Shown here: positions 8,879 to 51,766 of the stretch, in pieces
Layout of the letters: every line of letters starts with the position of its first letter
Position numbering within the stretch: position 1 is the stretch's first letter
From: Pseudomonadota bacterium
GTDB lineage: Bacteria; Pseudomonadota; Alphaproteobacteria; Sphingomonadales; Sphingomonadaceae
Length of the DNA stretch: 64,000 nucleotides
Reading direction: 5' to 3'
NCBI GenBank assembly: GCA_040390605.1
Contig: JAZJXZ010000017.1
Coordinates: 34,948-98,947 of the forward strand
The notes under the pieces: model-generated
What the model saw: only the letters and a program-made list of their open reading frames with translations
Database searches by the model: none
What the model was told of the DNA's origin: nothing
Program-made: the position numbers and the translations under genes

Positions 8879-10605
8879 CGCGCCTTCACATAACTCCCCG
8901 GCGCATCGTCGATCGCCTTGAGCTTGCCCTTGCCCGGCTGGCGCGCACCCTTGGCCGGCACGGTCGCGTCGTCCTGCGCCGTCAGCCAGGCCAGCCAGTC
9001 CGGCCACCAGCTACCCTTGGTTTCGGTCGCGCCCGCGACGAATTCCGCGAGCGTCCTGGCCGGCGCAGGATTGGTCCAATATTGATATTTGCCGAGCGCC
9101 GGTGGGTTTACCACGCCGGCGATATGCCCCGAACCGGCGAGCACGAACCTGATCGGGCCGGCAAACTGGTCGGTGATCTTCCACACGCTTTCCGCCGGCG
9201 CGATATGATCCTCACGACCCGCCTGGACATAGGACGGCGTCTTGACCTTCTTCAACTCGATCGGCGTGCCGAGCACTGACAAGGCCCCCGGCTTTACCAG
9301 CAGATTGTCGCGATAGAGGTCGGTGAGATAGCTCAGATGCCAGGCGGCGGGCAGGTTGGTGGTGTCGCCGTTCCAGTGCAGCAGGTCGAACGGCGCATAG
9401 TCCTGGCCGAGCAGGTAATTGTTGGTGACATAATTCCAGATCAGGTCTCGCCCGCGCAACAGATTGAACGTCGCCGCCATATAGCGCCCGTCGAGATATC
9501 CCTCGGGCGTCAGCGATTTGAGCAGGTCGAGCACTTCGTCGTCGACGAAGTTCAGCAACTCTCCGGCACGCTCGAAATCGACCTGTGCCGTGAAGAAGGT
9601 CGCGCTTTTGACGTTCTTGGCCTTCTTGCGCGCCGCCAGCACGGCGAGCGTAGCGGCGAGCGTGGTGCCCGCGACGCAATAGCCGATGCTGTGCACCGAT
9701 GGGACGTCGAGCAGGTCGCGGATCGTGTCGATCACGTCGATCTGCGCGGCAACGTAATCGTCCCACAATATCCCGGCCATCGACGCGTCGGCCGAGCGCC
9801 ACGACACCATGAACACGGTGATGCCCTGATCGACGCACCAGCGGATGAAGCTCTTTTCCGCCGTCAAATCGAGAATGTAGAAGCGGTTTATCCAGGGCGG
9901 GAAGATCACCAGCGGTACCGCCAGCACCGTGTCGGTGGTCGGCGTGTACTGGATCAGCTCGTAGAGGTCGGTGCGGTGCACCACCTTGCCCGGCGTCGTC
10001 GCCAGGTTCCGACCGACCTCGAACGCGTCGGGATCGGTCTGCGTCATCTGCCCCTTGGCCATGTCGGCGAGCATGCGCTTGAGGCCGGTCAGCAGATTCT
10101 CGCCGCCGGTCTCGATCGTCTTTTCCAGCACCGCCGGGTTGGTGGTCGGGAAGTTCGACGGGCTCATCGCATCGATGAAACCCTTCATCGCGAAGCTCAT
10201 CTGCTGCTTCTGCTTCGCGTCGAGCCCTTCGACAGCATCGATATTGCCGAGCATGTAGTCGGCGACGAGAAAATAGCTCTGGCGGATCCAGTCGAACACG
10301 GGGTTTTCGCGCCAGCGCGGATCGCGGAAGCGTTTGTCGGCATCGTGAATCGATGGTTCGGCCGGCGCGGCGAGCGGGTCGAGCATGCGCTGCCACAGCT
10401 CGAGGCTGTGGGTCCAGAAATCGCGCGTCCGTTCGATCGTCGCGGGATCGGTCAGGCCGGGTATCGCCGGCACCGCACCGGTCATCACCGGCAGTTCGAA
10501 GCCTTGCTCCATCATCTGCTGCTGCAGCCGGCCGAGCAGCCAGGTCCAGTGCTGCATATCGGCCAGGCTGGGTATCGTCGTGGCGGAATCCTTGCCTTCG
10601 GCCAT
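8875..10605 (-). CDS. phaC: class I poly(R)-hydroxyalkanoate synthase
   Basis: Start at MAEGKDSATT. The lipase-box GYCVAGT is present and the alpha/beta-hydrolase PhaC layout holds throughout. Confidence 0.9.
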   Translation of the reverse strand: MAEGKDSATTIPSLADMQHWTWLLGRLQQQMMEQGFELPVMTGAVPAIPGLTDPATIERTRDFWTHSLELWQRMLDPLAAPAEPSIHDADKRFRDPRWRENPVFDWIRQSYFLVADYMLGNIDAVEGLDAKQKQQMSFAMKGFIDAMSPSNFPTTNPAVLEKTIETGGENLLTGLKRMLADMAKGQMTQTDPDAFEVGRNLATTPGKVVHRTDLYELIQYTPTTDTVLAVPLVIFPPWINRFYILDLTAEKSFIRWCVDQGITVFMVSWRSADASMAGILWDDYVAAQIDVIDTIRDLLDVPSVHSIGYCVAGTTLAATLAVLAARKKAKNVKSATFFTAQVDFERAGELLNFVDDEVLDLLKSLTPEGYLDGRYMAATFNLLRGRDLIWNYVTNNYLLGQDYAPFDLLHWNGDTTNLPAAWHLSYLTDLYRDNLLVKPGALSVLGTPIELKKVKTPSYVQAGREDHIAPAESVWKITDQFAGPIRFVLAGSGHIAGVVNPPALGKYQYWTNPAPARTLAEFVAGATETKGSWWPDWLAWLTAQDDATVPAKGARQPGKGKLKAIDDAPGSYVKAR

Positions 10606-36088: not shown

Positions 36089-36559
36089 TCACTCGATGCC
36101 GAGCAGGCGGTCGAGCGAGAAGCGCCCGGCGCCGAGCGCGATGATCGGCAGCATCAGCCCGGCCCAGCTGAGATGCGTCGGCCACGCATCGGGATAGACG
36201 AAGACCTCGATCACCGTCGTCATGCCGAGGAGGGCCAGCGCGGAGAAACGGCTGAACAGCCCGAGCACGAGCAGGATCGGGAAGACATGCTCGGCGGTGG
36301 TCGCGGCATAGGCGGCCGGTACCGCCGGGATCAGCGGCAAGGCGTAATCGCTGCGGAACAACTCGAAGGTGCCGTCGCTGAGCGTGAACCATCCCTCGAC
36401 CTTGGTGCGCCCCGACTGGAAGAACACCGCCGCGACGCCGAGCCGCTGCACCAGCAGCAGCGCCGACATGGGGAGCGCACGCCGCGCCAGCGCGGCGAAG
36501 CGGTCGAGCGGGTTGCGGCGCGCGGCGGAGGCGGCTGTCGTTGTGTCGAGCATGATCAT
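36089..36559 (-). CDS. DoxX family membrane protein (last gene of bufferin-1-type operon)
   Basis: MIMLDTTT...[21 protein letters not shown]...[20 protein letters not shown] overlap with the upstream DUF2063 gene. Confidence 0.8.
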
Positions 36560-37290
36560 TTTCCCTTGATGCGGAGCGAAGAGAGCGCGCCGCTCGCAAG
36601 GATCTTGCGAAAGGCGGTGGAGATGTCGGTCTGCGGATAGAGTGTCGCGGCAACCGCAGCGGCCTGGCCGATCGTCTCGCCGAGCCTGAGGCCGAACAGG
36701 ATACGATGTTCGGCGGCGTTGATCGTGCGCGCCGTCACCGCGCCGTGGCGGCGGGTGACCAACACACCCTCGGCGCGCCATTCGGGCGCGATCTCGCCCG
36801 CCGTCTCACCGAGATGGGCGAGCCAGATCGACGGCGCCGGCACGGTGAACCAGCTGAAGCGGGTGGCGGGCTGGAGCAGGACGGCGCTCGCCGACCATTG
36901 CTCGGCCGAAACCGATGCGAGCGCCCGTGGATCGAGCATCTCGCCCTCGACCGCGAGATGTGCCTCGACGCGCAACCGGTCGATCTGCGCCACGCCCGAA
37001 ATATAGGGCAGCACCTGGGCGATCGGCTGGGTCTCCAGCCAGTCGGCGAATCCGGCGCCATAATCGGCCAGCACCGGGCTTTGCGGCGGCAGATCGACGA
37101 CGAAATCGGCCGCCAGCGCAAGGAAGGCGGTGGCGCCGAGGATCGTCGATACGGTGGGATGGTTGTCGGCCAGCGCGTCGATCGCGCCCTTCAGGGCGGT
37201 GTTGCGATAGACCGTCAGCGCGGGGTGCCAGGGACGCGTGCCGTCGAGCGCATCGACGAAGCGGCGTTGATAGGTCGCAAGATCAGGCAT
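36556..37290 (-). CDS. bufC: DUF2063 protein (BufC-type partner of the MNIO enzyme)
   Basis: 244 aa. YQRRFVDAL...[32 protein letters not shown] is a DUF2063-like N-terminus. Overlaps the DUF692 stop by 8 nt. Confidence 0.8.
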
Positions 37291-38119
37291 GAGCGTGAAC
37301 CTTTCCTTCGAGCAGGGCGGCGGCGCGATCGCGCTCGGCCATCAGGGTGGCGAAATCGGGCACGTTGCCGTCGCGCTCGAGCAGCACCGGGCGATGCCCC
37401 GCATGATCGAGCAGGTCGGCGAGTAGTGCCCAGACGGATTCGGCAACGGGGGTGTCGTGGCTGTCGATCAGCAGGTCGTCGCCGAGCAGCGGGTCGGCCG
37501 AATGGCCGGCGATGTGGATCTCACCAATCGCCGGGTGCGGCAAAGCAGCCAGATAGGCCTGGGCATCCTCGCCGAGATTGGCGGCGGCGACCGCGACATT
37601 GTTGACGTCGATCAGCAGCCCGCAGCCGGTGCGTGACACGATCTCGCGCAGGAAATCAGGCTCGTCCCACGCCGCGCCTTCGTTGGGCATGTAATGTGCC
37701 GGATTCTCGATCAGGATCGTCCGGCCCAGGGTCTGCTGGACGATATCGATATTGCGCGTGACGCAGGCCAGGGCCTCGGCGGTGCGCGGCACCGGCAGCA
37801 AATCGGGTAGGCAGCGCGTGCCGATCCGCGACCAGGCGAGATGCTCGGAGACGAGGAACGGATCGAAGCGCGCGACCAGCCGCGCCAGCTTGGCGAGGTG
37901 CAGCGCATCAGGCCGCTCGGCCCCGCCCAGCGACAGGCCGACGCCGTGCAGCGACAACGGCCGAACCTCGCGCAGCTCCTCCAGCATCATCAGCCGGGGG
38001 CCGCCCGCGACCATGTAATTCTCGGCATGGACCTCGAACCACATCCCGGCCGCCGGCGTGGCGATGGCCGCGTCGAAATGCTGCGGCTTGAAAGCCACGC
38101 CGGCGGTCGGGCGGTTCAT
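37283..38119 (-). CDS. bufB: DUF692 / MNIO family (MbnB/TglH/BufB-like) RiPP-modifying iron enzyme
   Basis: 278 aa. GVAFKPQHF...WFEVHAENYM...LSLHGVGLSLGG...FLVSEHLAW...IENP...DVNNV...EIHIAGH is the UPF0276/DUF692 pattern. Confidence 0.85.
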   Translation of the reverse strand: MNRPTAGVAFKPQHFDAAIATPAAGMWFEVHAENYMVAGGPRLMMLEELREVRPLSLHGVGLSLGGAERPDALHLAKLARLVARFDPFLVSEHLAWSRIGTRCLPDLLPVPRTAEALACVTRNIDIVQQTLGRTILIENPAHYMPNEGAAWDEPDFLREIVSRTGCGLLIDVNNVAVAAANLGEDAQAYLAALPHPAIGEIHIAGHSADPLLGDDLLIDSHDTPVAESVWALLADLLDHAGHRPVLLERDGNVPDFATLMAERDRAAALLEGKVHAHA

Positions 38120-38123
38120 CGCC

Positions 38124-38402
38124 TCAACCCTTCGGGGTCAGCGAGCCAAAGCCCTTGGGCGTCTTGATGCGCGTGCAGCTGCCCTTGGCAACGTACTTCC
38201 AGGCGTCACCCTGATAGGCGACGCGACTGGTGCCGGCGCAGCTGGTGCCGGCACCGGCCTTGCAATCGTTCTTGCCGGCCAGGCTGATGCCATAGCATTT
38301 GTCCTTGCCGGGCTGCGGCGCGACCGGGCCGGCATGGGCCGCGGCGGCGCCGAGCGCCGACAGGACGGCGGCGGTGAGGGCGAGATTGACGGTCTTCATC
38401 AT
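38124..38402 (-). CDS. bufA: DUF2282 4-Cys secreted precursor peptide (BufA1-type bufferin)
   Basis: [24 protein letters not shown] | [68 protein letters not shown]. Sec signal plus four Cys. Its stop lies 4 nt from the DUF692 start. Confidence 0.85.
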
Positions 38403-38514
38403 GGTTCCTTTCGAAGGGGTGCTCCCTCTCGGGTGCGGCACGACATTCGCGTAAAACGCCGTCGGCGTCCGCTACCCGGACCGCATCGTTTCGATGCGCG
38501 CGGGTGATGGCGGC

Positions 38515-39660
38515 TCAGCCGGCAGCGGAGGTGTGGATCATCTCGCCGCCCATCGCCTCGTGCAGCACGAAACCCTCTAGCGGATCGACCTCGGCGCGCC
38601 ACGGCCCGGCTTCCAGCGTGCGCATCGTGTCGGCATAGCCGGCATCCCAGCGCGCGCGGATGCCCGCCGGGCTGAAGTCGATGTCCTTGCTGTGATCCTC
38701 GCAGGCCAGTGCCGGGGCGAGCAGGCGGATGACGTGCATGCGCGTCGGGCAGCCATAGGCGGCGAGCCCCGCCACCTCGGCCGACTGTCGCTTGTCCGCC
38801 GGTACCAGCGCCGACAATTCGGTGATCACATGGCGCAGCTTGTGAAGCTGGCGCTGGCGCTTGATATGGGTCGAGGCGCGGCTGGAATATTGCACGTCCT
38901 TCTGGCGGTTCATCACCTCCCAGATCGTTTCGGGCTCGGCCCCGTGCGGGTTCCAGATATGCACCGCATAGACCATCGAATCGCGCCGCGGATTGTCGTC
39001 GAACACCACCTCGACCGGCGTGTTCGAGAGGATGCCGCCGTCCCAATAGAGCTCGCCGTCGATGCGCACCGCGGGAAAGGCGGGCGGCAGCGCGCCCGAG
39101 GCCATTACGTGGCGCAGGTCGAGCGGCGTGTCGCGCGAATCGAAATAATGCATCTCGCTGGTCGTCACGCGCGAGGCACCGACGGTCAGCCGCACCGGGC
39201 CGGCATTGACCTGGTCGAAATCGATCAGGTCGGCGAGCGTCTTGCGTAGCGGCTCGACCGAATAATAGCCCGCGCCCTCCGCGCCCAATGTGCTGTGCGG
39301 GCTGACAAAGGCGCCGGCGTTGGGGGTGAAGAAGGCCGGTAGCCCGCCGACCACGGTCGACCAGTTGCGGAACATCGCCGAAAGCTGCGTCGGCAGCGCC
39401 CATTCGAAGGCGTGGCCATGTTCCATGCGGCGCCAGAATTCGCGCAGCCGCTCCATGCGCTCGTCGGCGCGACTACCGGCGATGATCGCGGCGTTGATCG
39501 CGCCGATCGAGGTGCCGATCACCCAGTCGGGCTCGACCCCGGCCTCGTGCAACGCCTGATAGACGCCGACCTGATAGGCACCGAGCGCGCCGCCGCCCTG
39601 GAGCACCAGCACCTGCTGGCCGTGGCGGCGTAGTTCGTCGTGAAGGGTAAGGCGAGACAT
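38515..39660 (-). CDS. patatin-like phospholipase
   Basis: Start MSRLTLHDEL, with AGGAGA 6 nt upstream. Oxyanion GGGALGAYQVG and nucleophile elbow GTSIGA are present. Confidence 0.85.
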   Translation of the reverse strand: MSRLTLHDELRRHGQQVLVLQGGGALGAYQVGVYQALHEAGVEPDWVIGTSIGAINAAIIAGSRADERMERLREFWRRMEHGHAFEWALPTQLSAMFRNWSTVVGGLPAFFTPNAGAFVSPHSTLGAEGAGYYSVEPLRKTLADLIDFDQVNAGPVRLTVGASRVTTSEMHYFDSRDTPLDLRHVMASGALPPAFPAVRIDGELYWDGGILSNTPVEVVFDDNPRRDSMVYAVHIWNPHGAEPETIWEVMNRQKDVQYSSRASTHIKRQRQLHKLRHVITELSALVPADKRQSAEVAGLAAYGCPTRMHVIRLLAPALACEDHSKDIDFSPAGIRARWDAGYADTMRTLEAGPWRAEVDPLEGFVLHEAMGGEMIHTSAAG

Positions 39661-42582: not shown

Positions 42583-42702
42583 AGCAGCGTCCGTCATGGA
42601 GGCGGCCGGTTCCCTGCCCCCGAAACCCGCCGCCTCCTCGCGCGGTGCCTGCAACCCCTGCGGGCACCGCGCACCCATGTTCAAATCAAGCGGGATCGTG
42701 AT

Positions 42703-43119
42703 GTGACAGATCCGTATCGCGTCGGCCTCGATGTGCTGGCGCAAACCGGTGCCGGCCAGGACACCCGGCGCAACCGCGTTGCCGAAATCGCGCCCGACTT
42801 CGCCCGCCTTGCCATCGGCTTTGCCTATGGCGAGATCTTCGCGCGGCCTGGACTCGACCTCAAGGAGCGCGAGCTCGCCGCCATCGCCGCGCATGCCGCG
42901 CTCGGCAGGGCCTCCGCGCAACTGCGCCAGCATGTCGAGGCTGCACTGCATCTCGGCTGGAGCCGCGCGGAGATCGTCGAGGTGCTGATCCAGACGGCGG
43001 TGCATGCCGGCCTTCCGGCCGCACTCGACGCCCTGTCAAATTGTCACGACCTGTTGGTCGAACGCAGTGGCTATTGCGCATCCTGCGAAAGCGATGCGCC
43101 GGATCGCGGCCAAACGTGA
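42703..43119 (+). CDS. carboxymuconolactone decarboxylase (AhpD-like) family protein
   Basis: GTG start. GLDLKERELAAIAAHAALGRASAQLRQHVEAALHLGWSRAEIVEVLIQTAVHAGLPAA is a CMD-domain pattern. Confidence 0.75.
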   Translation: MTDPYRVGLDVLAQTGAGQDTRRNRVAEIAPDFARLAIGFAYGEIFARPGLDLKERELAAIAAHAALGRASAQLRQHVEAALHLGWSRAEIVEVLIQTAVHAGLPAALDALSNCHDLLVERSGYCASCESDAPDRGQT

Positions 43120-44060: not shown

Positions 44061-45005
44061 TCAGGCCGCGACCCGAACCGCGCGCCGTTCGACCCGCCGC
44101 GCGAGCGTGATCGCGCCGGCGATCGACAGCGCCATCACCGACACCGCGACCCAGGCATAAGACAGCAGCAACGGCAGTCCGATCAGGATCAGCCCGTCAT
44201 TGCTGCCCGGCACCAGCATCGCGCCGACCCCCATCAAAGCGCCGCCGGCAGCGCAGCGCAGCACATCGCGCGCGCGCGGCGGCGTCGAGTTGAGCAGGCC
44301 GGCGATCCATCCCCCGGCGATCGCGCCGCCCAGCAGCGCCAGCACCATCGCCAGGCGCAGCGTCAGACGCGCCTCCATGCCATGCGCCAGCGCGGCGAGC
44401 GCGTCGGTATAGGCCCATGGCCCGACCGCCAGCAGCGTCGTCACGAAGGTCGCGGCGATCAGCAAGGTGGCGCGGTGCGGATGCCACAGATGCGCGAAGA
44501 AGCCGGGTGCGTGCGCCGCCTCGGCAAGCCGCCACATGATCGGCACGGCAATGGCGATAGCGACGATGCCGGCATGCGCGAATGGCGCGACATGCTGCGA
44601 TCCGGGCAACGCGGCAGCGCCGTGCAGCGGCACGAGACAGCCGAAATAGAAACCGACCGGCGTGGCCAGCCACGCCCATTGCCCCGAGCCGATCCTGGCG
44701 ATCGCACCGAACACGCAGGCGCGGTTGATCCAGGCGCCGAGGCCGAGCAGCACGCCGCCCGCCACCGTCGCGCCGCTCGGCGGATAACGCGCCGGGGACA
44801 TGGCGAACAAGCCGGCGAGCTGGGCCAGCGCGAGCAACCCGCCGACCCACAATGCCGCCTCGCCCAGCGCCAGCGCGCGCGTCGCGCGGCGCATCGTGAC
44901 GATCTCATCGACCGCCGCGACCATGCAGGTCGCGCCGCGCTGGATGGCGAGACCCATCAGCGCGGCGGACATCAGGGCGATGGCGGCGGCAGCCCAGCCG
45001 TACAT
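44061..45005 (-). CDS. YeeE/YedE-like polytopic membrane protein (putative sulfur-compound transporter)
   Basis: Start MYGWAAAAIALMSA. Repeated ...RGATCMVAAV... and ...NRACVFGAIA... Cys-containing helices as in YeeE/YedE. One-nucleotide overlap with the upstream gene. Confidence 0.55.
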   Translation of the reverse strand: MYGWAAAAIALMSAALMGLAIQRGATCMVAAVDEIVTMRRATRALALGEAALWVGGLLALAQLAGLFAMSPARYPPSGATVAGGVLLGLGAWINRACVFGAIARIGSGQWAWLATPVGFYFGCLVPLHGAAALPGSQHVAPFAHAGIVAIAIAVPIMWRLAEAAHAPGFFAHLWHPHRATLLIAATFVTTLLAVGPWAYTDALAALAHGMEARLTLRLAMVLALLGGAIAGGWIAGLLNSTPPRARDVLRCAAGGALMGVGAMLVPGSNDGLILIGLPLLLSYAWVAVSVMALSIAGAITLARRVERRAVRVAA

Positions 45006-45502
45006 CAGCGCGTCGCGGCGCCGGCGATCGAGGCGGCGACCTCGCTGGCCATCCTGAACTGCGCAGCGCGGTCGGTGATGCGATAGCGCCGTGCGATGAA
45101 GCCGAAATCGGTCCACGCCACCCACACCTGGCCGCTGGTGTCTTCCAGCACCAGCATGCGCACCGGCCAGTCGAGCCCGGCATAGGGATTGGACTGGAGA
45201 AACTGCACGCCGAGCGGCGGGTTGCCGAACAGCACCAGGGTCGAGCGGCGGATCTTGAGTCCCGCGCCCTCGCCAAGGCCGCTCTGGTCGATCGCGTCGA
45301 AGAAGCGGATGCCCTTGGCCGCGACATCGGCCTTGAGTTGCGCGACGGTCTGGTCGAAGCCGCTGGCGCTGCGCAGTTGCACGACGCCGTCGGCGGCGGC
45401 GACCGGCGTGGCGGTGGCGGCCCTGGTTCCGGCGGCGGTGGCGGGGGCGCCGGTGAGCGCGGCGACAGCGATGAGCGGCGCGAGGATAAGCGGATATTTC
45501 AT
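45005..45502 (-). CDS. secreted DUF302-domain protein
   Basis: Signal peptide MKYPLILAPLIAVAALTGAPATA. ...VLFGNPPLGVQFLQSNPYAGLDWPVRMLVLED is DUF302-like. GGAGA RBS. Confidence 0.65.
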   Translation of the reverse strand: MKYPLILAPLIAVAALTGAPATAAGTRAATATPVAAADGVVQLRSASGFDQTVAQLKADVAAKGIRFFDAIDQSGLGEGAGLKIRRSTLVLFGNPPLGVQFLQSNPYAGLDWPVRMLVLEDTSGQVWVAWTDFGFIARRYRITDRAAQFRMASEVAASIAGAATR

Positions 45503-45668
45503 ACTGGTCTCCTGTCGGCGAAGGTCGCGTTTGACAGGGCCGCTATCGCGAACGGCGGCGGGGGAGTGAAATCGGCTCTTGCTATGGTTTCGATGACCGG
45601 TGCCTATGATCGTCCCGCCGACGGCAACGATCATTCAGGAGCGCGAAGCGACCGGGTTCACGGTCCAG

Positions 45669-46427
45669 TCAATTGTCCGCGCAGCTGAAACCCGCGATGA
45701 GACCCTCGGACACCCACTGCGCCAGATATTGCCCCGCTTGCCCGACGCCGCGCTCTTCGCCCAGCCTGTCGACGAGTCGCGAACACAGTCCTTCGAACGA
45801 GACGCCGGACCGGACGAGGAGCAGGCACATCAGTTCCTGCGCCTCCGCGGTGCGAAAGTGCGATATGTGCCCTCGCCGCCAGACGATAACGGGCAAACTT
45901 TCCTCGAGATACTCGACTGGCGGCGGGACGTCGCCCGCATCGATGGCCGACCAGAGCGCGGCGGCGTTGGTCCATAGCGGTCGATGATCGAACGTTGGCG
46001 GGAGGTGCAAAACCGCCTTTGCCCAGTCGATGTCGCCAAGCTGGTCCATGCCGAGCTCGGTCGCATCGGGGCCGACGAATGCCTCGCCCAGCGCGCATTC
46101 GATCCACGCGAGTTCACCGACCTCCGGATCATCCTCGAAGGCGCTCGACAACGTCGCCGGAAAATCGCGCGCATAGGCGTCGAGCGTCCAGCTGCTCGGC
46201 GGAACGCGGTCGATGTGCGTGACGAGCGACTGCAGAAAGAGATCGCCCCCGAGCCACGCGCGGGTATGGGGAAAGGCTTCGTCGAGGCACGCAATAAGCT
46301 GCGCGCGATAGTTGTTCATATAGACATCGAGTCCTGCGGCGGCGCTCTCGCCGATCCGCCGGGCCGCCGACCGGTCCTCGTGGACCAGCCAGGCGCGGAC
46401 GTCGCGTTGCAGCGCCAGCAGGCTCAT
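45669..46427 (-). CDS. bufC: DUF2063 protein (BufC-type), second copy
   Basis: MSLLALQRDVRAWL...GLDVYMNNYRAQLIACLDEAFPHTRAWLGGDLF. ATGA overlap with the DUF692 stop. Confidence 0.8.
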   Translation of the reverse strand: MSLLALQRDVRAWLVHEDRSAARRIGESAAAGLDVYMNNYRAQLIACLDEAFPHTRAWLGGDLFLQSLVTHIDRVPPSSWTLDAYARDFPATLSSAFEDDPEVGELAWIECALGEAFVGPDATELGMDQLGDIDWAKAVLHLPPTFDHRPLWTNAAALWSAIDAGDVPPPVEYLEESLPVIVWRRGHISHFRTAEAQELMCLLLVRSGVSFEGLCSRLVDRLGEERGVGQAGQYLAQWVSEGLIAGFSCADN

Positions 46428-47254
46428 GCCGCCCTCTTCTCACCCGCACGCCCGATCCGCCGTGCGACGTCGAGTTCGGCGAGGAGGTCGGCGAGCGGCG
46501 GAATGTCGTCGTCGCGCTCGATCATCGTGGCGACCGGTCCGAGGCGTGGCAGCACATGGGCATAGAGATCCCACACCGATGCCGGAACCTCGCGATCGTG
46601 CGTATCGATCAGCAGGTGCTTGCCCGCGCTATGGCCGGCGAGGTGAATCTGGCGGACGCGGTCGTGCGGCAGGCCGTCCAGATAGGCGATCGCGTCGAAC
46701 CCGTGATTGGTCGCGCTGACGAAGACGTTGTTGACGTCGAGCAGCAGCCCGCAGCCTGTGCGTGCGCAGACCGCGTCGAGAAACTGCCACTCGGACATGT
46801 CGGCGGGCGCGAAGTCGATATAGCTGGAGGGGTTTTCGATCAGCATCTCGCGACGCAGCGCCTCCTGCGCCCGCGCGATATTGGCGCACACCACATCTAG
46901 CGCCTCGCGCGTGTAGGGCAGCGGCAGAAGATCGTGCGCGTTGAAGCCCTCGCTCCGGCTCCAGCTGAGATGATCAGAGACGAACAGCGGTTCGATCTCG
47001 TCGACCAGCGCGCGCAACCGCGCCAGATACGCCCCGTCCAATCCGTCGGCCGAGCCAAGCGACATCGAGACGCCGTGCAGCGCCACCGGATACCGCTGGC
47101 GCACATCGCGCAGAATCTGACGCGGTTTCCCGCCGTCGACCATGAAATTCTCGGAGATCACCTCGACGAAATCGACCGCCACACGGTGTTCGAGGAATTC
47201 CCGGTAGTGCGGCTTGCGAAGACCGAGCCCGAAGCCGGCAAAAGTAGCGCTCAT
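46424..47254 (-). CDS. bufB: DUF692 / MNIO family RiPP-modifying enzyme, second copy
   Basis: GFGLGLRKPHY...VDFVEVISENFM...VALHGVSMSLGS...LFVSDHLSW...IENPSSY...DVNNVFV...QIHLAGH. Confidence 0.85.
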   Translation of the reverse strand: MSATFAGFGLGLRKPHYREFLEHRVAVDFVEVISENFMVDGGKPRQILRDVRQRYPVALHGVSMSLGSADGLDGAYLARLRALVDEIEPLFVSDHLSWSRSEGFNAHDLLPLPYTREALDVVCANIARAQEALRREMLIENPSSYIDFAPADMSEWQFLDAVCARTGCGLLLDVNNVFVSATNHGFDAIAYLDGLPHDRVRQIHLAGHSAGKHLLIDTHDREVPASVWDLYAHVLPRLGPVATMIERDDDIPPLADLLAELDVARRIGRAGEKRAA

Positions 47255-47323: not shown

Positions 47324-47584
47324 TCAGTTCGGTGCGGTGGTGCTGCCGCCGGCGGCGGTGCAGGCCTTGAGCGCCATTTCCTTGAAGCCCTGACCCTTGC
47401 AGTCGTTCTGGCCCTTGCAATCATGGTTGCCCGACTTGCAGTCCGACTGGCCCTTGCAGCCGTTGACGCCGTAGCAATGGACCTTCGCCCCACCCTTGGC
47501 GACGGCCATGGTCGGGGCGACCGCGGTGATGGCGACAACGGCGGCGGCAGCGGCGAAGCTCACGCCGGTTCGGATCATGGTCAT
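47324..47584 (-). CDS. bufA: 6-Cys secreted precursor peptide (BufA2-type bufferin)
   Basis: MTMIRTGVSFAAAAAVVAITAVAPTMAVA | KGGAKVHCYGVNGCKGQSDCKSGNHDCKGQNDCKGQGFKEMALKACTAAGGSTTAPN. AGGAG lies 6 nt upstream. Six Cys, including a CKGQ-type repeat. Confidence 0.8.
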   Translation of the reverse strand: MTMIRTGVSFAAAAAVVAITAVAPTMAVAKGGAKVHCYGVNGCKGQSDCKSGNHDCKGQNDCKGQGFKEMALKACTAAGGSTTAPN

Positions 47585-47625: not shown

Positions 47626-47651
47626 TTCGGCGTAGGCGGCGCCCTGGTTAC
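47626..47651 (-). promoter_or_regulatory. ECF-type promoter TGTAACC-N16-CGAAC for the 6-Cys bufferin operon
   Basis: The minus strand reads tTGTAACC agggcgccgcctacgc CGAAC. It lies in the 80-nt gap between the nrsF stop and the bufA2 start. Confidence 0.7.
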
Positions 47652-47664
47652 AACGACCGCATCG

Positions 47665-48309
47665 TCACCAGCGCAGCAGGCGGGGGCCCAGCAGCGCGCC
47701 CAGCCCGGCGGCGAGCAAGATGCCCAACGAATACCAGGTGAGCACGAACAGCGCGGATACCTCCGGGCAATGCAGGCAATAGACCATGGCCGCGAAAGCA
47801 CCCGCGGCGAGCCCGGCAGCCGCGCCCGCAGCACGCAACCGCGTCGGCGCAAGGCGCCGGAACGACCAGAGCAAACCCACAAAGATCGGCATCGCCAGCG
47901 TGACCACGCGCCACGGACAATACATCCAGCTTTCGCCCAGCCACATTGCCAGCCATTCGCCACGCGGCGTTCGGACCAGTTCAACCGCGCCCACGCCCGC
48001 CAGAAGCAATACCGGCACGGCGACCACCCAGGCCCAGCGCAACCGCCCGCTATCCGGCCGGGCGAGCTGGACGGTCATCGCAAGCGCCGCGATCGACAGC
48101 GAAATGGTGTAGGCCCATTTCATCCAGAACGAGAAGCCGTGCATCGCGCTGCCGATATCCGGGCGCACACCCATCGCCAGCACCACATATATCAGGGACA
48201 CGACGGCGCCGCACAGGACGCCCGCGGTCAAGCGGCGGCTCACGGTGAACCGTCGGACCGGCGAAACCTCCGTCGAAAGGCGCGCGATCAGGTCTTCGGT
48301 GTTCATCAA
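47665..48309 (-). CDS. nrsF: NrsF (DUF1109) family anti-sigma factor, six-TM
   Basis: MMNTEDLIARLSTEVSPVRR... is followed by six hydrophobic segments with conserved Cys (MYCPW, YCLHCPE). ATGA overlap with the sigma gene. Confidence 0.8.
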   Translation of the reverse strand: MMNTEDLIARLSTEVSPVRRFTVSRRLTAGVLCGAVVSLIYVVLAMGVRPDIGSAMHGFSFWMKWAYTISLSIAALAMTVQLARPDSGRLRWAWVVAVPVLLLAGVGAVELVRTPRGEWLAMWLGESWMYCPWRVVTLAMPIFVGLLWSFRRLAPTRLRAAGAAAGLAAGAFAAMVYCLHCPEVSALFVLTWYSLGILLAAGLGALLGPRLLRW

Positions 48310-48842
48310 CCGCTCCCCTGGATGCGCGCCATCAACGACTTGAGCCCGCGATGCACTGACACCTTGACGTCGGATTCGCCCACACCGTTCGCCGCCGCCG
48401 CCTCCGCGACACTCAGGCCCTCGATCCGCGTCGCGCGGATCGCGCGCGCCTGTTTGGCCGGCAGGGTGTCCAGCAATTCCTCCACGTCGAGACGCGCGCT
48501 GGATGCCTTTTCAAAGTCTTCGGCGACCAGCACGTCTTCGAGGCCGTCGATCGGCTGCAGTCGTCGCACGCGGCGGAAATGGTCGATCATCTTGTAGCGG
48601 GCGATGGCGAACAACCAGGCGGTAAAGAGACGATCGCGATCATAGGTCGCCCGCTTGGTGTGAACGGCGATAAGCGTCTCTTGCACAAGGTCCTCGATAT
48701 CGTCTTCGCCACCATTCGCCCGGCGACGGTAATAGGCGCGAAGCAAGGGGACGAGAAGGCGCAGCAATGCGGCATGGTCGGCGGCATTGCCGTCGAGCCC
48801 ATTGATCATCAAACACCGCAAATCGTTCTCGCTTGCCCGCAT
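48306..48842 (-). CDS. sigF: ECF (sigma-70 family group IV) sigma factor, SigF-like
   Basis: Start MRASENDL, with GGGAG 5 nt upstream. Region 2 block EDLVQETLIAVHTKRATYD...FTAWLFAIARYKMIDHFRR, region 4 block ARAIRATRIEGLSVAEAAAANGVGESDVKVSVHRGLK. Confidence 0.9.
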   Translation of the reverse strand: MRASENDLRCLMINGLDGNAADHAALLRLLVPLLRAYYRRRANGGEDDIEDLVQETLIAVHTKRATYDRDRLFTAWLFAIARYKMIDHFRRVRRLQPIDGLEDVLVAEDFEKASSARLDVEELLDTLPAKQARAIRATRIEGLSVAEAAAANGVGESDVKVSVHRGLKSLMARIQGSG

Positions 48843-48862
48843 TCGCACTCCCTGCCTGCCGG

Positions 48863-48888
48863 TTCGACGGAACACGCCTAGAAGTTAC
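48863..48888 (-). promoter_or_regulatory. ECF-type promoter TGTAACT-N16-CGAAC upstream of sigF (autoregulation)
   Basis: The minus strand reads cTGTAACT tctaggcgtgttccgt CGAAC. The -10 element ends about 20 nt upstream of the ATG. Confidence 0.65.
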
Positions 48889-48957: not shown

Positions 48958-49000
48958 CTGGGTCAGGTAGCCGGGGCATTCTTGTCTCCTTCCCGGCCGC

Positions 49001-49035
49001 CGCGCGACCCGGTGCCCCCCGTTCCGGGTCGCGCG
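49001..49035 (+). other. 12-bp perfect stem-loop in the roughly 100-nt leader of the orphan precursor gene
   Basis: CGCGCGACCCGG (49001-12), loop tgccccccgtt, CCGGGTCGCGCG (49024-35). No U-tract follows. Confidence 0.55.
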
Positions 49036-49064
49036 TCATCGAGGCATCATCGAAGGAAATTCAT

Positions 49065-49343
49065 ATGCGCAAGTCATATGCGAGCCTCGCGGCGGCGCTG
49101 GCGGTCACGACCGTCGGCGCGACCGTTGCCGCCAACGCCGCCGCCCAGACCCGGCCCGCAATGGAGAAATGCTACGGCATCGCCCGTGCGGGCAAGAACG
49201 ATTGCAAGGCCGGCGCCGGCACGAGCTGCGCCGGCACGTCGAAGGTCGACTATCAGGGCAACGCCTGGAAGCTCGTCAAGGCCGGCACCTGTGTCAAGGC
49301 CAGAACCCCGAAGGGCTTCGGCTCGCTAACGCCGAAATCGTGA
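49065..49343 (+). CDS. bufA: DUF2282 4-Cys secreted precursor peptide, second paralogue (BufA1-type)
   Basis: [27 protein letters not shown] | [65 protein letters not shown]. By hand alignment, 45 of 58 core positions are identical to the 38124-38402 peptide. Confidence 0.85.
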
Positions 49344-49349
49344 TCCGCT

Positions 49350-49376
49350 CGGCCGGGGCGTGACCCGCCCCGGCCG
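49350..49376 (+). other. 11-bp perfect GC hairpin immediately after the precursor stop
   Basis: CGGCCGGGGCG tgacc CGCCCCGGCCG. No U-tract. It lies between bufA1' and doxX'. Confidence 0.5.
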
Positions 49377-49399
49377 CAACCGTGCAACGGAGAACAGCC

Positions 49400-49858
49400 A
49401 TGACTTGGCCGATTGCCCCTGTCGGGCGAATCCTCGACCGCCTGTCCGCCGCGATGCCCGATGCAGCGCTGCTGCTCGCGGGCCGTCTCGGCATCGCCGC
49501 CGTCTTCTTTACCTCGGGGCGAACGAAGGTGGATGGCATCATCCACATCACCGACGGCACCTACGAACTCTTTCGCACGGAATATGTTCTGCCGCTCGTC
49601 CCGCCGGAAGTGGCCGCAGTGCTGGCGACCTGGTCGGAGCACGTCTTCTCCATCCTGCTCATCCTCGGGCTGCTGACGCGCCTTTCCGCGACGGCGCTGT
49701 TCGCCATGACGCTGACGATCGAGATCTTCGTCTATCCCGACGCCTGGCCGACGCATCTGAGCTGGGCGGCGATCCTGTTGCCGCTGATGTTCCGCGGCGG
49801 AGGCGGCTGGTCGCTCGATTGTCTGCTGCGCCGGCCCTCCGCGCCCGCCGCGCACTGA
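49400..49858 (+). CDS. DoxX family membrane protein, second paralogue
   Basis: The ATG at 49400 has GGAGA 6 nt upstream (GTG at 49382 is also possible). LLLAGRLGIAAVFFTSGRTKV...[16 protein letters not shown] parallels the 36089-36559 DoxX. Confidence 0.8.
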   Translation: MTWPIAPVGRILDRLSAAMPDAALLLAGRLGIAAVFFTSGRTKVDGIIHITDGTYELFRTEYVLPLVPPEVAAVLATWSEHVFSILLILGLLTRLSATALFAMTLTIEIFVYPDAWPTHLSWAAILLPLMFRGGGGWSLDCLLRRPSAPAAH

Positions 49859-49880
49859 TTCCCGGGCGATTGGAAGAACG

Positions 49881-50654
49881 ATGTCGCACCATTCGATCGA
49901 CCGTCGCACCGTGCTGGCCGGGCTGGCCGGGCTGGCCGGAGCGATGGCGACGCCGGCGCTCGGCCAGTCGGCCGCGCCGGCCATCAAGGCGATCGCCTTC
50001 GACGGACTCGCCATCTTCGACCCGCGCGGGGTTGCCGTCAGGGCGCGGGCGTTGCTGGGCCAGCGGGGCGACGCCCTCGCCTCGCAGTGGTCGGCAAAGC
50101 TCTTCGGCTATAGCTGGCTCGAAACGGCCGCCGGCCGATATGCCGATTTCCGGACGCTCGCCGACGCCGCGCTCCGCTATGTCGCCGAGACGATGAAGGT
50201 GCCGCTCGACGCGAGAACGCGGGAGCAGCTGGTCGGCGCATATGATGCGCTCGACCTGTGGCCGGATGTCAAACCGGCGCTGGCCAGGCTCCACACCGCC
50301 GGCGTGCGCCTCGCCTTCCTGTCCAACCTCGGCGTCGAAACGTTGAACGCGAACATGTCGGCCAACGGCATCGCCGGATATTTCGAAGCGCCGCTCAGCA
50401 CCGACGCCGTCGGCCGCTTCAAACCCGCTCCGGAAGCCTATGCCATGGCGCTGCGCGCATTCGGGCTTCCGCGCGCGCATATCGGCTTCGCGGCATTCGG
50501 CGGATGGGATGCCGCCGGGGCGACATGGTTCGGCTACCGCACCGCCTGGGTCAATCGCTTCGACCTTCCCGTAGAACCGCTCGATACGCGACCGGCGATC
50601 ACAAGCCGCGGCATGGAAGGCGTTCTCGCCCTCGCGGGCATCGCGCCGGCCTGA
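49881..50654 (+). CDS. HAD superfamily hydrolase (type II haloacid dehalogenase-like) with twin-arginine signal
   Basis: MSHHSIDRRTVLAGLAGLAGAMATPALG is a Tat-like signal. IKAIAFDGLAIFD is HAD motif I with the nucleophile Asp. ...LAFLSNLG... and ...GGWDAAGA... follow. Starts 22 nt after doxX'. Confidence 0.7.
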   Translation: MSHHSIDRRTVLAGLAGLAGAMATPALGQSAAPAIKAIAFDGLAIFDPRGVAVRARALLGQRGDALASQWSAKLFGYSWLETAAGRYADFRTLADAALRYVAETMKVPLDARTREQLVGAYDALDLWPDVKPALARLHTAGVRLAFLSNLGVETLNANMSANGIAGYFEAPLSTDAVGRFKPAPEAYAMALRAFGLPRAHIGFAAFGGWDAAGATWFGYRTAWVNRFDLPVEPLDTRPAITSRGMEGVLALAGIAPA

Positions 50655-50697: not shown

Positions 50698-51219
50698 TTA
50701 TCGGCCTCGTTTCAGCATAGCGATCGCCTGAGCGCCGCCCCAGTCGATGGCGCGCGGCACGCGGGCGACCTCCCGGCCGGATCGATCGAAGATCACCGAA
50801 TATGGCGTGCCGAGCGCGCCATAGCGCCTGACCTGCGCAATGGGCGAAAAGCCCAGGTGGAGATGGGGATATTGGCCGGCGAACGCTGTGCGAGCGTCAT
50901 TGCGGTCGGCGTCGACCGACGCGGCGATGACGACGATGTCGCGCCGGCGCGCGGCCAGGCGATCGAGACTGGGCAGTTCCTCCCGACAAGGACCGCACCA
51001 ACTCGCCCAGAAGTTCACGACGAGAACCTTTCCACGCGCGCTACGCTCCAGATATCGCGAACCGTCGTCCAGCTCGATCTCGGGGAGCTGCGCCGAACCT
51101 GTACGTGCCGCCGCTGCCGACAAGACCGGCGGGCCGCCTGCCGCGACGATTGGTTGCCCAATCGCCGCGGCAGCCGACAACGCAAACGCCGCAACAGTCA
51201 AAGGGCGGTGGGCGCTCAA
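50698..51219 (-). CDS. TlpA-like periplasmic thiol:disulfide oxidoreductase
   Basis: Signal or anchor sequence, then VLVVNFWASWCGPCREELPSL (thioredoxin CxxC). The TTG start forms a TTGA overlap with the YHS gene stop; start uncertain. Confidence 0.8.
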   Translation of the reverse strand: MSAHRPLTVAAFALSAAAAIGQPIVAAGGPPVLSAAAARTGSAQLPEIELDDGSRYLERSARGKVLVVNFWASWCGPCREELPSLDRLAARRRDIVVIAASVDADRNDARTAFAGQYPHLHLGFSPIAQVRRYGALGTPYSVIFDRSGREVARVPRAIDWGGAQAIAMLKRGR

Positions 51220-51707
51220 AAGGCCTTGTCCTTCACGCTCGGCCAGTTTGCGCGCGCCTTGCCGACAATCCCGGGCGTGTCCTTATTGAAGATCGCGAGC
51301 GCGCGGGGGCCGTTGTTCAGATACAGCTTGCCGTTCACCACCTTGCCGGTCCGCGGATCGACGTCGACCTTCTCGCCGAACGCCGCGCCGGTGGCACAGA
51401 AGCCGCCAAATTCCGGAATGTACTTGCGCGGGTTGGCAAGGAAGGTGCGACGATGCGCAGCGGTGGCAAACAGGTATCGCGCTCCACCATAGGTCGCGGA
51501 TAACGCCGGCATGCCCGGCGTCGGTTTGCCGCTGTCGAAATAGGCGATCGGGTCGAAGCCGCCGAGCGCCACACCGCGCTCGTCGAGATTGACCTGCGAC
51601 GTCGATCCCTTGACGCCGGCAATGGCCGGCGACGCGGCGATCGGAGCGACAGCTTGAGCCAGGATGATGAACGAGGCCGCAATCGCGCCTCTCAACGATT
51701 TGTGCAT
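51216..51707 (-). CDS. secreted YHS-domain protein
   Basis: Signal peptide MHKSLRGAIAASFIILAQAVAPIAA. GGFDPIAYFDSGKP...YGGARYLFATAAHRRTFLANPRKYIPEFGGFC is YHS-like. Confidence 0.7.
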   Translation of the reverse strand: MHKSLRGAIAASFIILAQAVAPIAASPAIAGVKGSTSQVNLDERGVALGGFDPIAYFDSGKPTPGMPALSATYGGARYLFATAAHRRTFLANPRKYIPEFGGFCATGAAFGEKVDVDPRTGKVVNGKLYLNNGPRALAIFNKDTPGIVGKARANWPSVKDKAF

Positions 51708-51740
51708 GGTGGGAGCTCCTCTGTTTCGTGACCTCCCGGG

Positions 51741-51766
51741 TTCGCTGCTCGCGAGCCGATGGTTAC
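51741..51766 (-). promoter_or_regulatory. ECF-type promoter TGTAACC-N16-CGAAC upstream of the YHS-TlpA operon
   Basis: The minus strand reads tTGTAACC atcggctcgcgagcag CGAAC. The -10 element ends about 33 nt upstream of the YHS ATG. Confidence 0.65.

Follow-up and report, generated by a model that had tools for sequence, protein, structure and literature searches.

Among the ribosomally synthesised and post-translationally modified peptides (RiPPs), the copper-binding bufferins form a very large class that was recognised only recently, for which the enzymes acting on stand-alone precursors and the function of the accompanying DoxX proteins are at issue. Which enzymes mature a bufferin precursor whose gene is followed by a doxX gene and not by an enzyme gene? 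This question is raised by a 64-kb stretch of DNA from an alphaproteobacterium of the family Sphingomonadaceae (contig JAZJXZ010000017.1, positions 34,948 to 98,947; G+C content 66.7%), referred to here as the window. On its plus strand lie bufA', encoding a DUF2282 precursor, doxX', encoding a DoxX membrane protein, and the gene of a haloacid dehalogenase-fold hydrolase, called HAD below. An earlier annotation made from the sequence alone (the first-pass annotation) had described this locus as enzyme-less, and indeed neither the window-derived hidden Markov models (HMMs) nor the list of open reading frames (ORFs) give a DUF692 or DUF2063 gene between or after these genes on the plus strand. 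The label is nevertheless misleading, since bufA'-doxX'-HAD is divergent from sigF-nrsF-bufA2-bufB2-bufC2, as seen in the ORF listing and profile searches, which puts an MNIO/DUF2063 pair 1.8 kb away: the gene next to bufA' is doxX', and the nearest MNIO gene is bufB2 on the opposite strand. With an exact sigmaF-type motif upstream of bufA' and profile-matched sigF and nrsF genes adjacent to it, the locus is read here, with modest confidence, as the plus-strand arm of a composite two-precursor bufferin cluster, which would respond to metal stress under the control of sigmaF and NrsF.

A DUF2282-DoxX pair beside a bufA2-bufB-bufC module

The DUF2282-DoxX pair without enzymes of its own is a widespread, selected architecture, which adjoins a bufA2-bufB-bufC module. 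The first-pass annotation had proposed a survey of such pairs without an adjacent DUF692 gene; metagenome contigs were scanned with an alignment of BufD-type DoxX proteins, and the best 80 loci were annotated with HMMs from the window proteins. A DUF2063 gene lies directly upstream of doxX in 36 loci, which represent the full A-B-C-D operon, and a DUF2282 gene lies directly upstream with no enzyme genes between in 31 loci, hereafter A-D pairs; nine loci are cut by a contig end and four are of other kinds. Since the sample consists of the 80 closest relatives of DoxX', the 31 A-D pairs in 71 classifiable loci indicate that the arrangement is common among these relatives and do not represent an unbiased, general frequency. 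Where the upstream flank of an A-D pair extends over 2.6 kb or more, a module of bufA2 and a DUF692 gene is adjacent in 21 of 21 cases, and sigF-nrsF is located between the pair and this module in 18 of the 21, as in the window; on shorter contigs, the sigma or NrsF genes are seen up to the point where the sequence ends. A sigmaF-like motif precedes the DUF2282 gene in 25 of the 28 A-D pairs with enough upstream sequence. The same layout is found in six genome loci centred on HAD, which derive from Sphingobium (L017, L040), Stakelama (L018), Sphingomonas oligophenolica (L023), Novosphingobium hassiacum (L024) and N. sediminicola (L038).

The ratios of nonsynonymous to synonymous substitution rates (dN/dS), obtained by comparison with four orthologous loci with a HAD identity of 70-89%, are 0.07-0.22 for bufA', 0.13-0.22 for doxX' and 0.17-0.21 for the HAD gene, by which all three genes are judged to be under purifying selection; the precursor is intact. 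In neighbour-joining trees, the orphan A' and D' proteins of the window cluster with the orphan pairs of Stakelama (L018) and Sphingomonas oligophenolica (L023) at 75-84% identity, whereas A and D encoded in the complete operon branch outside all of the sigF-linked sphingomonad sequences (58-61% identity). The two DUF2282/DoxX sets had been regarded as paralogous; they are similar, but judging from these trees they are not recent paralogues, and the orphan pair is orthologous to the orphan pairs of other genera. Neighbour-joining trees as evidence for repeated loss of B and C were dropped: no claim for a single or multiple loss is made, since the (short) DUF2282 and DoxX trees disagree on whether it occurred once or several times.

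Bufferin clusters, their control by sigmaF and NrsF, stand-alone precursors and the idea of maturation in trans are already published (PMC11626156; PMC3511200; PMC12452194). Caulobacter vibrioides possesses buf1 and buf2 under the control of SigF/NrsF (PMC11626156, PMC3511200), and shares with the window the same six protein families, the same sigmaF motif, Sec-exported cysteine-containing peptides and a DoxX protein that accompanies the DUF2282 class only. Unlike in Caulobacter, sigF-nrsF of the window runs directly into bufA2B2C2, the DUF2282 unit is divergent and lacks B and C, a complete buf1 operon with apparently different regulation exists in addition, and a HAD with a twin-arginine translocation (Tat) signal is appended. 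The stand-alone precursors and multi-precursor clusters of PMC12452194 likewise comprise precursors that are not encoded beside an MNIO gene; in the available part of that article, sigma and NrsF genes are reported for Buf1 and not for Buf2 clusters, whereas the window has them with bufA2. This part contains no description that we found of a fixed DUF2282-DoxX/bufA2BC pairing, a leader RNA or HAD, and the supplements, to the same extent, offered nothing useful on HAD, DUF2282-DoxX layouts or sphingomonad genome counts. Among the publications consulted, the pairing of DUF2282-DoxX with bufA2BC around sigF-nrsF, its mirror layout, the sigmaF-linked Tat-signal HAD and the leader RNA were not found described; both the HAD family and the structured bufA1 leader are uncharacterised additions to the metal-stress response under sigmaF.

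Table 1. Coordinates of genes, promoter motifs and RNA elements in the window
Feature	Position	Strand	Remarks
bufA' (DUF2282, bufferin 1 class precursor)	49065-49343	+	92 aa; PF10048 85.4 bits vs cut-off 22.4
doxX' (BufD-type DoxX membrane protein)	49400-49858	+	152 aa; Pfam DoxX 60.5 bits
HAD (type II HAD-fold hydrolase)	49881-50654	+	NCBIfam TIGR01428 'haloacid dehalogenase type II', 163.3 vs 125.4 bits (curated cut-off)
Extracytoplasmic function (ECF) sigma factor (sigmaF-like)	48306-48875	-	Sigma70_r2/r4_2 domains; NF009191 189 bits
NrsF anti-sigma factor	47665-48309	-	Pfam NrsF 251 bits
bufA2 (6-Cys bufferin 2 precursor)	47324-47584	-	NCBIfam NF050166 BufA2 101.1 bits vs cut-off 60
bufB2 (MNIO, DUF692 enzyme)	46424-47254	-	window-derived HMM; orthologue in L161 annotated PF05114
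bufC2 (DUF2063 partner protein)	45669-46427	-	window-derived HMM; PF09836 in L161
Complete bufA1-B1-C1-D1 operon	36089-38441	-	profile searches; possible alternative maturase source
bufA1 (first DUF2282 peptide)	38124-38441	-	
bufB1	37283-38119	-	
bufC1	36556-37290	-	
YHS-domain protein	51707-51216	-	NF041384 114.9 bits
TlpA-like thioredoxin	51219-50698	-	Redoxin/TlpA matches
sigmaF-type motif before bufA', GTAACCGGCGGCACGCAACGCGCGAA	48932-48957	+	exact match; 108 nt 5' of bufA' start codon
sigmaF-type motif before bufA2	47626-47651	-	exact match
sigmaF-type motif before YHS-TlpA operon	51766-51741	-	exact match
GTAACT-N16-CGAA before sigma gene	48888-48863	-	one mismatch
bufA' leader	48959-49064	+	about 100 nt between -10 element and start codon; conserved across lineages
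Leader H1	48967-48975 with 48992-49000	+	consensus GUGACC.GG / CC.GGUCAC
Leader H2	49001-49012 with 49024-49035	+	abuts H1; consensus CGCGCGG... / ...CCGCGCG
Leader H3	48984-48988 with 49041-49045	+	GUCUC in H1 loop (consensus GCCUC), complementary to GAGGC just after H2
Shine-Dalgarno sequence GAAGGAA	49052-49058	+	then ATG
GC-rich hairpin	49351-49375	+	10-bp stem, 5-nt loop; directly 3' of bufA' stop; no U-run; fold z-score -2.9

Candidate maturation enzymes of BufA'

By sequence, BufA' has an N-terminal Sec-type signal peptide and cysteines at the four aligned core positions. It is identical to BufA1 at 45 of 62 positions in BLASTP (73% over the core) and at 44 of 58 positions across the stretch E34-K91, so that the 45 of 58 core matches originally counted were close but inexact; the four cysteines and the C-terminal tail are, as had been noted, identical in both DUF2282 peptides. 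The loop between CysII and CysIII is identical in BufA' and BufA1 and unchanged in the mature BufA' of orthologous loci, and the modifiable cysteine pair and its flanks are invariant in orphan and enzyme-linked copies alike. It was shown that BufB1 and BufC1 together install 5-thiooxazoles, that the bufferin signal peptide is dispensable for this modification, which means that the core peptide is recognised, and that copper binding requires the thiooxazoles (PMC11626156).

Modification of the orphan precursor in trans, one of the two hypotheses of the first-pass annotation, is the most plausible route, and that some enzyme pair encoded elsewhere modifies BufA' is considered likely. The idea itself is not new, as the accessible part of PMC12452194 already mentions stand-alone precursors, suggests that they may be matured by enzymes from other loci and considers that an enzyme may have more than one substrate. 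BufB2/BufC2 are at least as likely to be the maturase as BufB1/BufC1, because a pair of this type is adjacent in 21 of 21 well-flanked A-D loci and because they share the sigmaF promoter type with bufA', and their participation in the modification of BufA' is somewhat favoured here. Two further arrangements bear on this question: mirror clusters, in which an orphan 6-Cys BufA2 adjoins a complete buf1 operon (L107, L110, L123), and single-strand clusters, in which both precursor classes are encoded together with one MNIO/DUF2063 pair (L104, L125, L126/L133). Taking the A-D, mirror and single-strand arrangements together, the simplest reading is that one MNIO/DUF2063 pair can probably serve both precursor classes. 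The fixed pairing and its mirror image predict that one MNIO/partner pair modifies two precursor classes, and that DoxX is linked with the peptide and not with the enzymes. In this reading, BufA' would be translated from an mRNA whose synthesis depends on sigmaF and whose leader is structured, and its two central cysteines would be converted into 5-thiooxazoles in the cytoplasm, before Sec export, by a BufB/BufC pair encoded elsewhere, most likely the adjacent and co-regulated BufB2/BufC2 and possibly, in addition, BufB1/BufC1, which are encoded 11 kb away; the exported BufA' would then buffer periplasmic copper.

The strongest alternative is that BufA' is matured solely by the distal BufB1/BufC1 and that the orphan gene provides an extra, sigmaF-inducible copy of their substrate. 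Its appeal lies in the 73% core identity of BufA' and BufA1 and their identical CysII-CysIII loop, in the recognition of bufferins through the core peptide (PMC11626156) and in the documented maturation of DUF2282 peptides by enzymes of the B1 type. This alternative is nonetheless considered unlikely: the buf1 operon has neither the sigmaF motif nor the leader RNA, so that co-expression of bufA' and buf1 is not assured, the nearby enzyme pair is of the B2C2 type in all 21 A-D loci, A and D of the window's buf1 operon represent an outgroup lineage, and the contig of the closest relative carries different genes beyond bufC2. An active-site ERD-x position has been linked to substrate class (bioRxiv 10.1101/2025.11.18.689057); as a class marker it fails here, with ERDD in 24 of 25 B2 enzymes of composite clusters and in 16 of 28 B1 enzymes, and this motif common to B2 and B1 enzymes likewise speaks against BufB1/BufC1 as the only maturase.

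Alternatively, BufA' might never be modified and be an unmodified cysteine-containing periplasmic protein, the redox state of which is possibly kept by DoxX'. PMC12452194, in its available part, leaves this open for stand-alone precursors, and bufA' is tightly linked to DoxX rather than to enzymes; however, the two modifiable cysteines and their flanks do not vary between orphan and enzyme-linked copies, every well-flanked orphan adjoins an MNIO/DUF2063 pair, and published copper binding needs thiooxazoles (PMC11626156), which together make an unmodified BufA' improbable. At the other end, it is tempting to combine all elements of the locus: BufB2/BufC2 would be a dual-class maturase of 6-Cys and DUF2282 precursors, the DUF2282-DoxX(+HAD) arm would function after export, and the conserved, pseudoknot-like bufA' leader would be an RNA sensing a ligand, metal or temperature, which adds translational control to sigmaF. 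This joint reading is rather doubtful as a whole.

Several points weigh against the composite-cluster reading with BufB2/BufC2 as maturase. BufA' resembles the cognate substrate of BufB1/BufC1, which are also encoded in this genome, and the action of BufB2C2-type enzymes on a DUF2282 peptide is what we infer from gene arrangement. The promoters are motif matches only, the DoxX survey is biased towards relatives of DoxX', as stated above, and the view of MNIO genes at A-D loci covers flanks of at most 6-10 kb. As to the third gene, Tat export of HAD is deduced from the twin-arginine pattern and a sub-threshold Pfam match, and in many sphingomonads HAD follows genes of an alpha/beta hydrolase and a short-chain dehydrogenase/reductase (SDR) and has no sigmaF motif, so that its membership of the regulon is limited to certain lineages.

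DoxX' and the HAD hydrolase

The gene following bufA' encodes a second DoxX paralogue, as had been proposed, which is identical to the DoxX protein of the 36-38 kb operon at 83 of 136 positions (61%); its match to the HvfX model lies below the cut-off (51.4 versus 80 bits). The assumption that DoxX is specific to the DUF2282 precursor class agrees with the survey, in which a DUF2282 gene is present in the cluster in 71 of the 71 classifiable loci of the DoxX clade, in the same transcription unit in 67 and elsewhere in the cluster in four. This association is not exclusive family-wide, since DoxX homologues also accompany EGKCG-type precursors (PMC11252979). In the oxazolin operon of Haemophilus, HvfX/DoxX is encoded alongside a copper peptide modified by an MNIO, and its participation in biosynthesis is regarded as unlikely (PMC11252979); unlike that of HvfX, the partner of DoxX' is a DUF2282 precursor and not an EGKCG-repeat precursor. 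Furthermore, DoxX was found to be dispensable for modification and for the copper phenotype (PMC11626156). Its dispensability for modification and its retention beside the precursor after B and C are gone suggest that the role of DoxX is tied to the exported peptide and not to the enzymes. Rather than taking part in maturation, DoxX' might act at the membrane, either on the peptide after its export or on the redox state of this peptide.

The third gene was correctly assigned to a type II HAD-like hydrolase with a twin-arginine N-terminus: the match to TIGR01428 is above the curated cut-off (Table 1), the N-terminus MSHHSIDRRTVLAGLAGLAGAMATPALGQ includes SIDRRTVLAG, and an RR-x-hydrophobic pattern, in which RR is followed by a hydrophobic stretch, is present in 75 of 81 family members. 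The Pfam model TAT_signal matches below its threshold (16.2 versus 22.7 bits). The AlphaFold model of HAD (pLDDT 93, residues 1-33 with low confidence) superimposes on L-2-haloacid dehalogenases (L-DEX YL, 1ZRM/1JUD) with a TM score of 0.95 and a root-mean-square deviation of 1.3 Å, and the fold is also common to DhlB (1QQ5). The catalytic set of L-DEX YL, which we take to be D10, T14, R41, S118, K151, Y157, S175, N177 and D180, is not complete in HAD. In the alignment to L-DEX YL, HAD keeps the Asp nucleophile (D41) and the equivalents of Ser118, Lys151, Tyr157 and Asp180 (S148, K181, Y187 and D210); unlike L-DEX YL, it has A44, S71, A205 and G207 in place of Thr14, Arg41, Ser175 and Asn177, its motif I is one residue shorter, and it possesses an N-terminal twin-arginine signal. 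A205 is found in 81 of 81 and G207 in 74 of 81 members of the HAD family, which come from many phyla, and the Arg41 position is occupied by R in 34 of 81 members and by S, A, N, T or F in the sphingomonad clade. On the basis of these comparisons, HAD is assigned to a family of its own, in which twin-arginine N-termini are conserved, and it is unlikely to be a canonical 2-haloacid dehalogenase. It could be a Tat-exported Asp-nucleophile hydrolase with a separate small-molecule substrate; in the literature on periplasmic Tat haloacid dehalogenases in copper stress, nothing relevant was found.

Is HAD a component of the bufferin system? A gap of 22 nt (49859-49880) separates doxX' from the HAD gene, as first measured, and the bufA'-doxX'-HAD operon is kept in four further lineages (P0001, P0003, P0006, P0010) with a HAD identity of 70-89%, where the downstream flanks vary and no sigmaF motif precedes the HAD gene. 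In addition, the order bufA1B1C1D1-HAD occurs in L021, and HAD is located upstream of a buf1 operon in L065. Based on this spacing, the missing promoter motif of its own, the conservation of the operon within the clade despite varying flanks and the independent origin of the adjacency in L021 and L065, HAD could be viewed as a bufferin-specific periplasmic tailoring or recycling enzyme, which targets mature BufA' or the complex of BufA' with copper. This is, however, very unlikely, since the HAD family spans phyla, HAD is absent from all 80 DoxX-centred loci, and 67 of 80 HAD-centred loci, which were examined from different species, have no buf gene within 10 kb; buf genes were found near the remaining 13. 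In the neighbourhood of HAD, genes of a haloalkane-dehalogenase-like alpha/beta hydrolase, in many cases with a Sec-type signal, are most common (26 of 80 loci), followed by those of an SDR (22 of 80); HAD may form a conserved small pathway with them (L007-L012, L016-L018, L020, L022, L024, L054, L074 and others, around position 10000). The role as bufferin component that had been considered for the exported hydrolase is therefore not a general one. Genes of CGNR zinc-finger regulators are also often seen near HAD.

An independent promoter of the HAD gene and a lack of co-occurrence with bufferin loci had been named as findings that would refute the proposed link. A stand-alone HAD gene is indeed preceded by a promoter-like motif, 60-65 nt upstream, in nine species; this motif is itself sigmaF-like (at most one mismatch), so that the refutation is only partial and co-regulation is the conserved feature. 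Overall, a sigmaF-like motif precedes HAD in 11 of 77 loci compared to a background of 2.2%. Together with the operon kept in four lineages and the arrangements in L021 and L065, this indicates that HAD is not linked to the sigmaF system by accident. HAD is best read as a co-regulated member of the sigmaF regulon and not as a maturation enzyme. The HAD gene directly follows doxX' only in the clade of the window and in one other lineage, and in this clade it would have gained sigmaF control by fusion behind doxX' and not by a promoter of its own. The window lineage may be derived from a layout as in L018, with 5.8 kb between doxX and HAD, via one as in L023, with 0.9 kb. HAD of the bufA'-doxX'-HAD operon is directly followed by the gene of a CLC-type chloride channel in one lineage (L168, 5906-7201; L169, 5268-6563). 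Because the two enzyme genes that separate A from D in the complete operon are missing here, one could also see in the locus a duplicated buf1 operon in decay, which serves no function by itself. This is hardly credible in view of the purifying selection on bufA', doxX' and HAD and of the occurrence of the two-gene unit in many genera with conserved promoter and leader.

SigmaF-type promoter motifs and the structured leader of bufA'

In Caulobacter, sigmaF binds the sequence GTAACC-N16-CGAA (PMC3511200). Exact matches occur three times in the window, compared to 0.10 expected, and only before bufA', bufA2 and the YHS gene; in the orthologous loci, the exact motif is located 133-138 nt 5' of bufA'. 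No sigmaF motif, allowing up to two mismatches, was detected upstream of doxX', the HAD gene or the complete buf1 operon. With a motif before bufA' and none before doxX' or HAD, bufA'-doxX'-HAD reads as one sigmaF-driven unit. The one-mismatch motif GTAACT-N16-CGAA suggests autoregulation of the sigma gene; it overlaps the longer ORF of the sigma factor, the start of which is probably ATG 48842 rather than GTG 48875. In the region 38400-38800 (minus strand), the complete buf1 operon has neither the sigmaF motif nor the leader RNA, and it follows a patatin-like gene on the same strand; its regulation thus seems to differ from that of the orphan pair.

The leader of bufA' is predicted to fold into two hairpins, H1 and H2, and a third pairing between the H1 loop and a segment just after H2 (H3), which would either create a pseudoknot or replace other pairs. 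In a structure-guided, N-padded alignment of 21 sequences, of which two are shifted by one column in H2, 90.8% of cells are paired compared to 82.7% in shuffles and 29-46% with slid partners; as the columns were fitted to the stems, the paired fraction of H1 and H2 is inflated, and the compensatory changes and the flank of H3 are the informative part. Both sides change in 14 of 32 pairs, nine of them in H2, and the pair flanking the GCCUC/GAGGC core appears as UA, AU, CG and GC. A MAFFT alignment of the leaders was rejected, as GAGGC was put in the wrong place. The covariance model R1, derived from 15 sequences, scores 84.1 bits at the bufA' leader and yields 22 further matches (E <=0.01) directly 5' of DUF2282 genes of both orphan and complete operons; except for one weak intergenic match in L106, all matches with E <1e-5 lie directly 5' of a DUF2282 gene. 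No R1 match was obtained at the window's own complete buf1 operon, and no Rfam family matches the bufA' leader. One might guess that the leader controls translation through its CCUCC-like loop. A weak R1 match of 23.9 bits (E of about 5e-4) is located at 42591-42703 on the plus strand upstream of ORF 42703-43119, which by eye only resembles a CMD/AhpD-type protein; CMD genes recur near HAD in other loci. This match may be a chance similarity of GC-rich hairpins.

Directly after the bufA' stop codon, a further hairpin is found at the equivalent position in L018, L023, L038 and L040, with T-runs in L038 and L040, while this junction measures only about 4 nt in complete operons. It could attenuate read-through into doxX. 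Searches for intrinsic terminators and sigma70 promoters between 47.2 and 52 kb gave nothing informative. The ORF of doxX' opens with GTG 49382, and public gene calls for the identical sequence begin at ATG 49400.

The YHS gene, of the YHS-domain (seleno)protein family, and the TlpA-like gene form an operon (50698-51766, minus strand) that is convergent with the HAD gene. Such genes are also seen in L114, L118, L136 and L145; in some loci, YHS(-TlpA) directly follows doxX, and in L145 the pair sits between the DUF2282 and DoxX genes; YHS as the usual gene after doxX was rejected, as it occurs there in 3 of 61 loci. On the opposite side of the cluster, bufC2 is followed on the same strand (44061-45634, minus strand) by genes of a DUF302 protein with a signal peptide and a YeeE/YedE-type sulphur-transport membrane protein, which may extend the sigF-bufA2BC unit.

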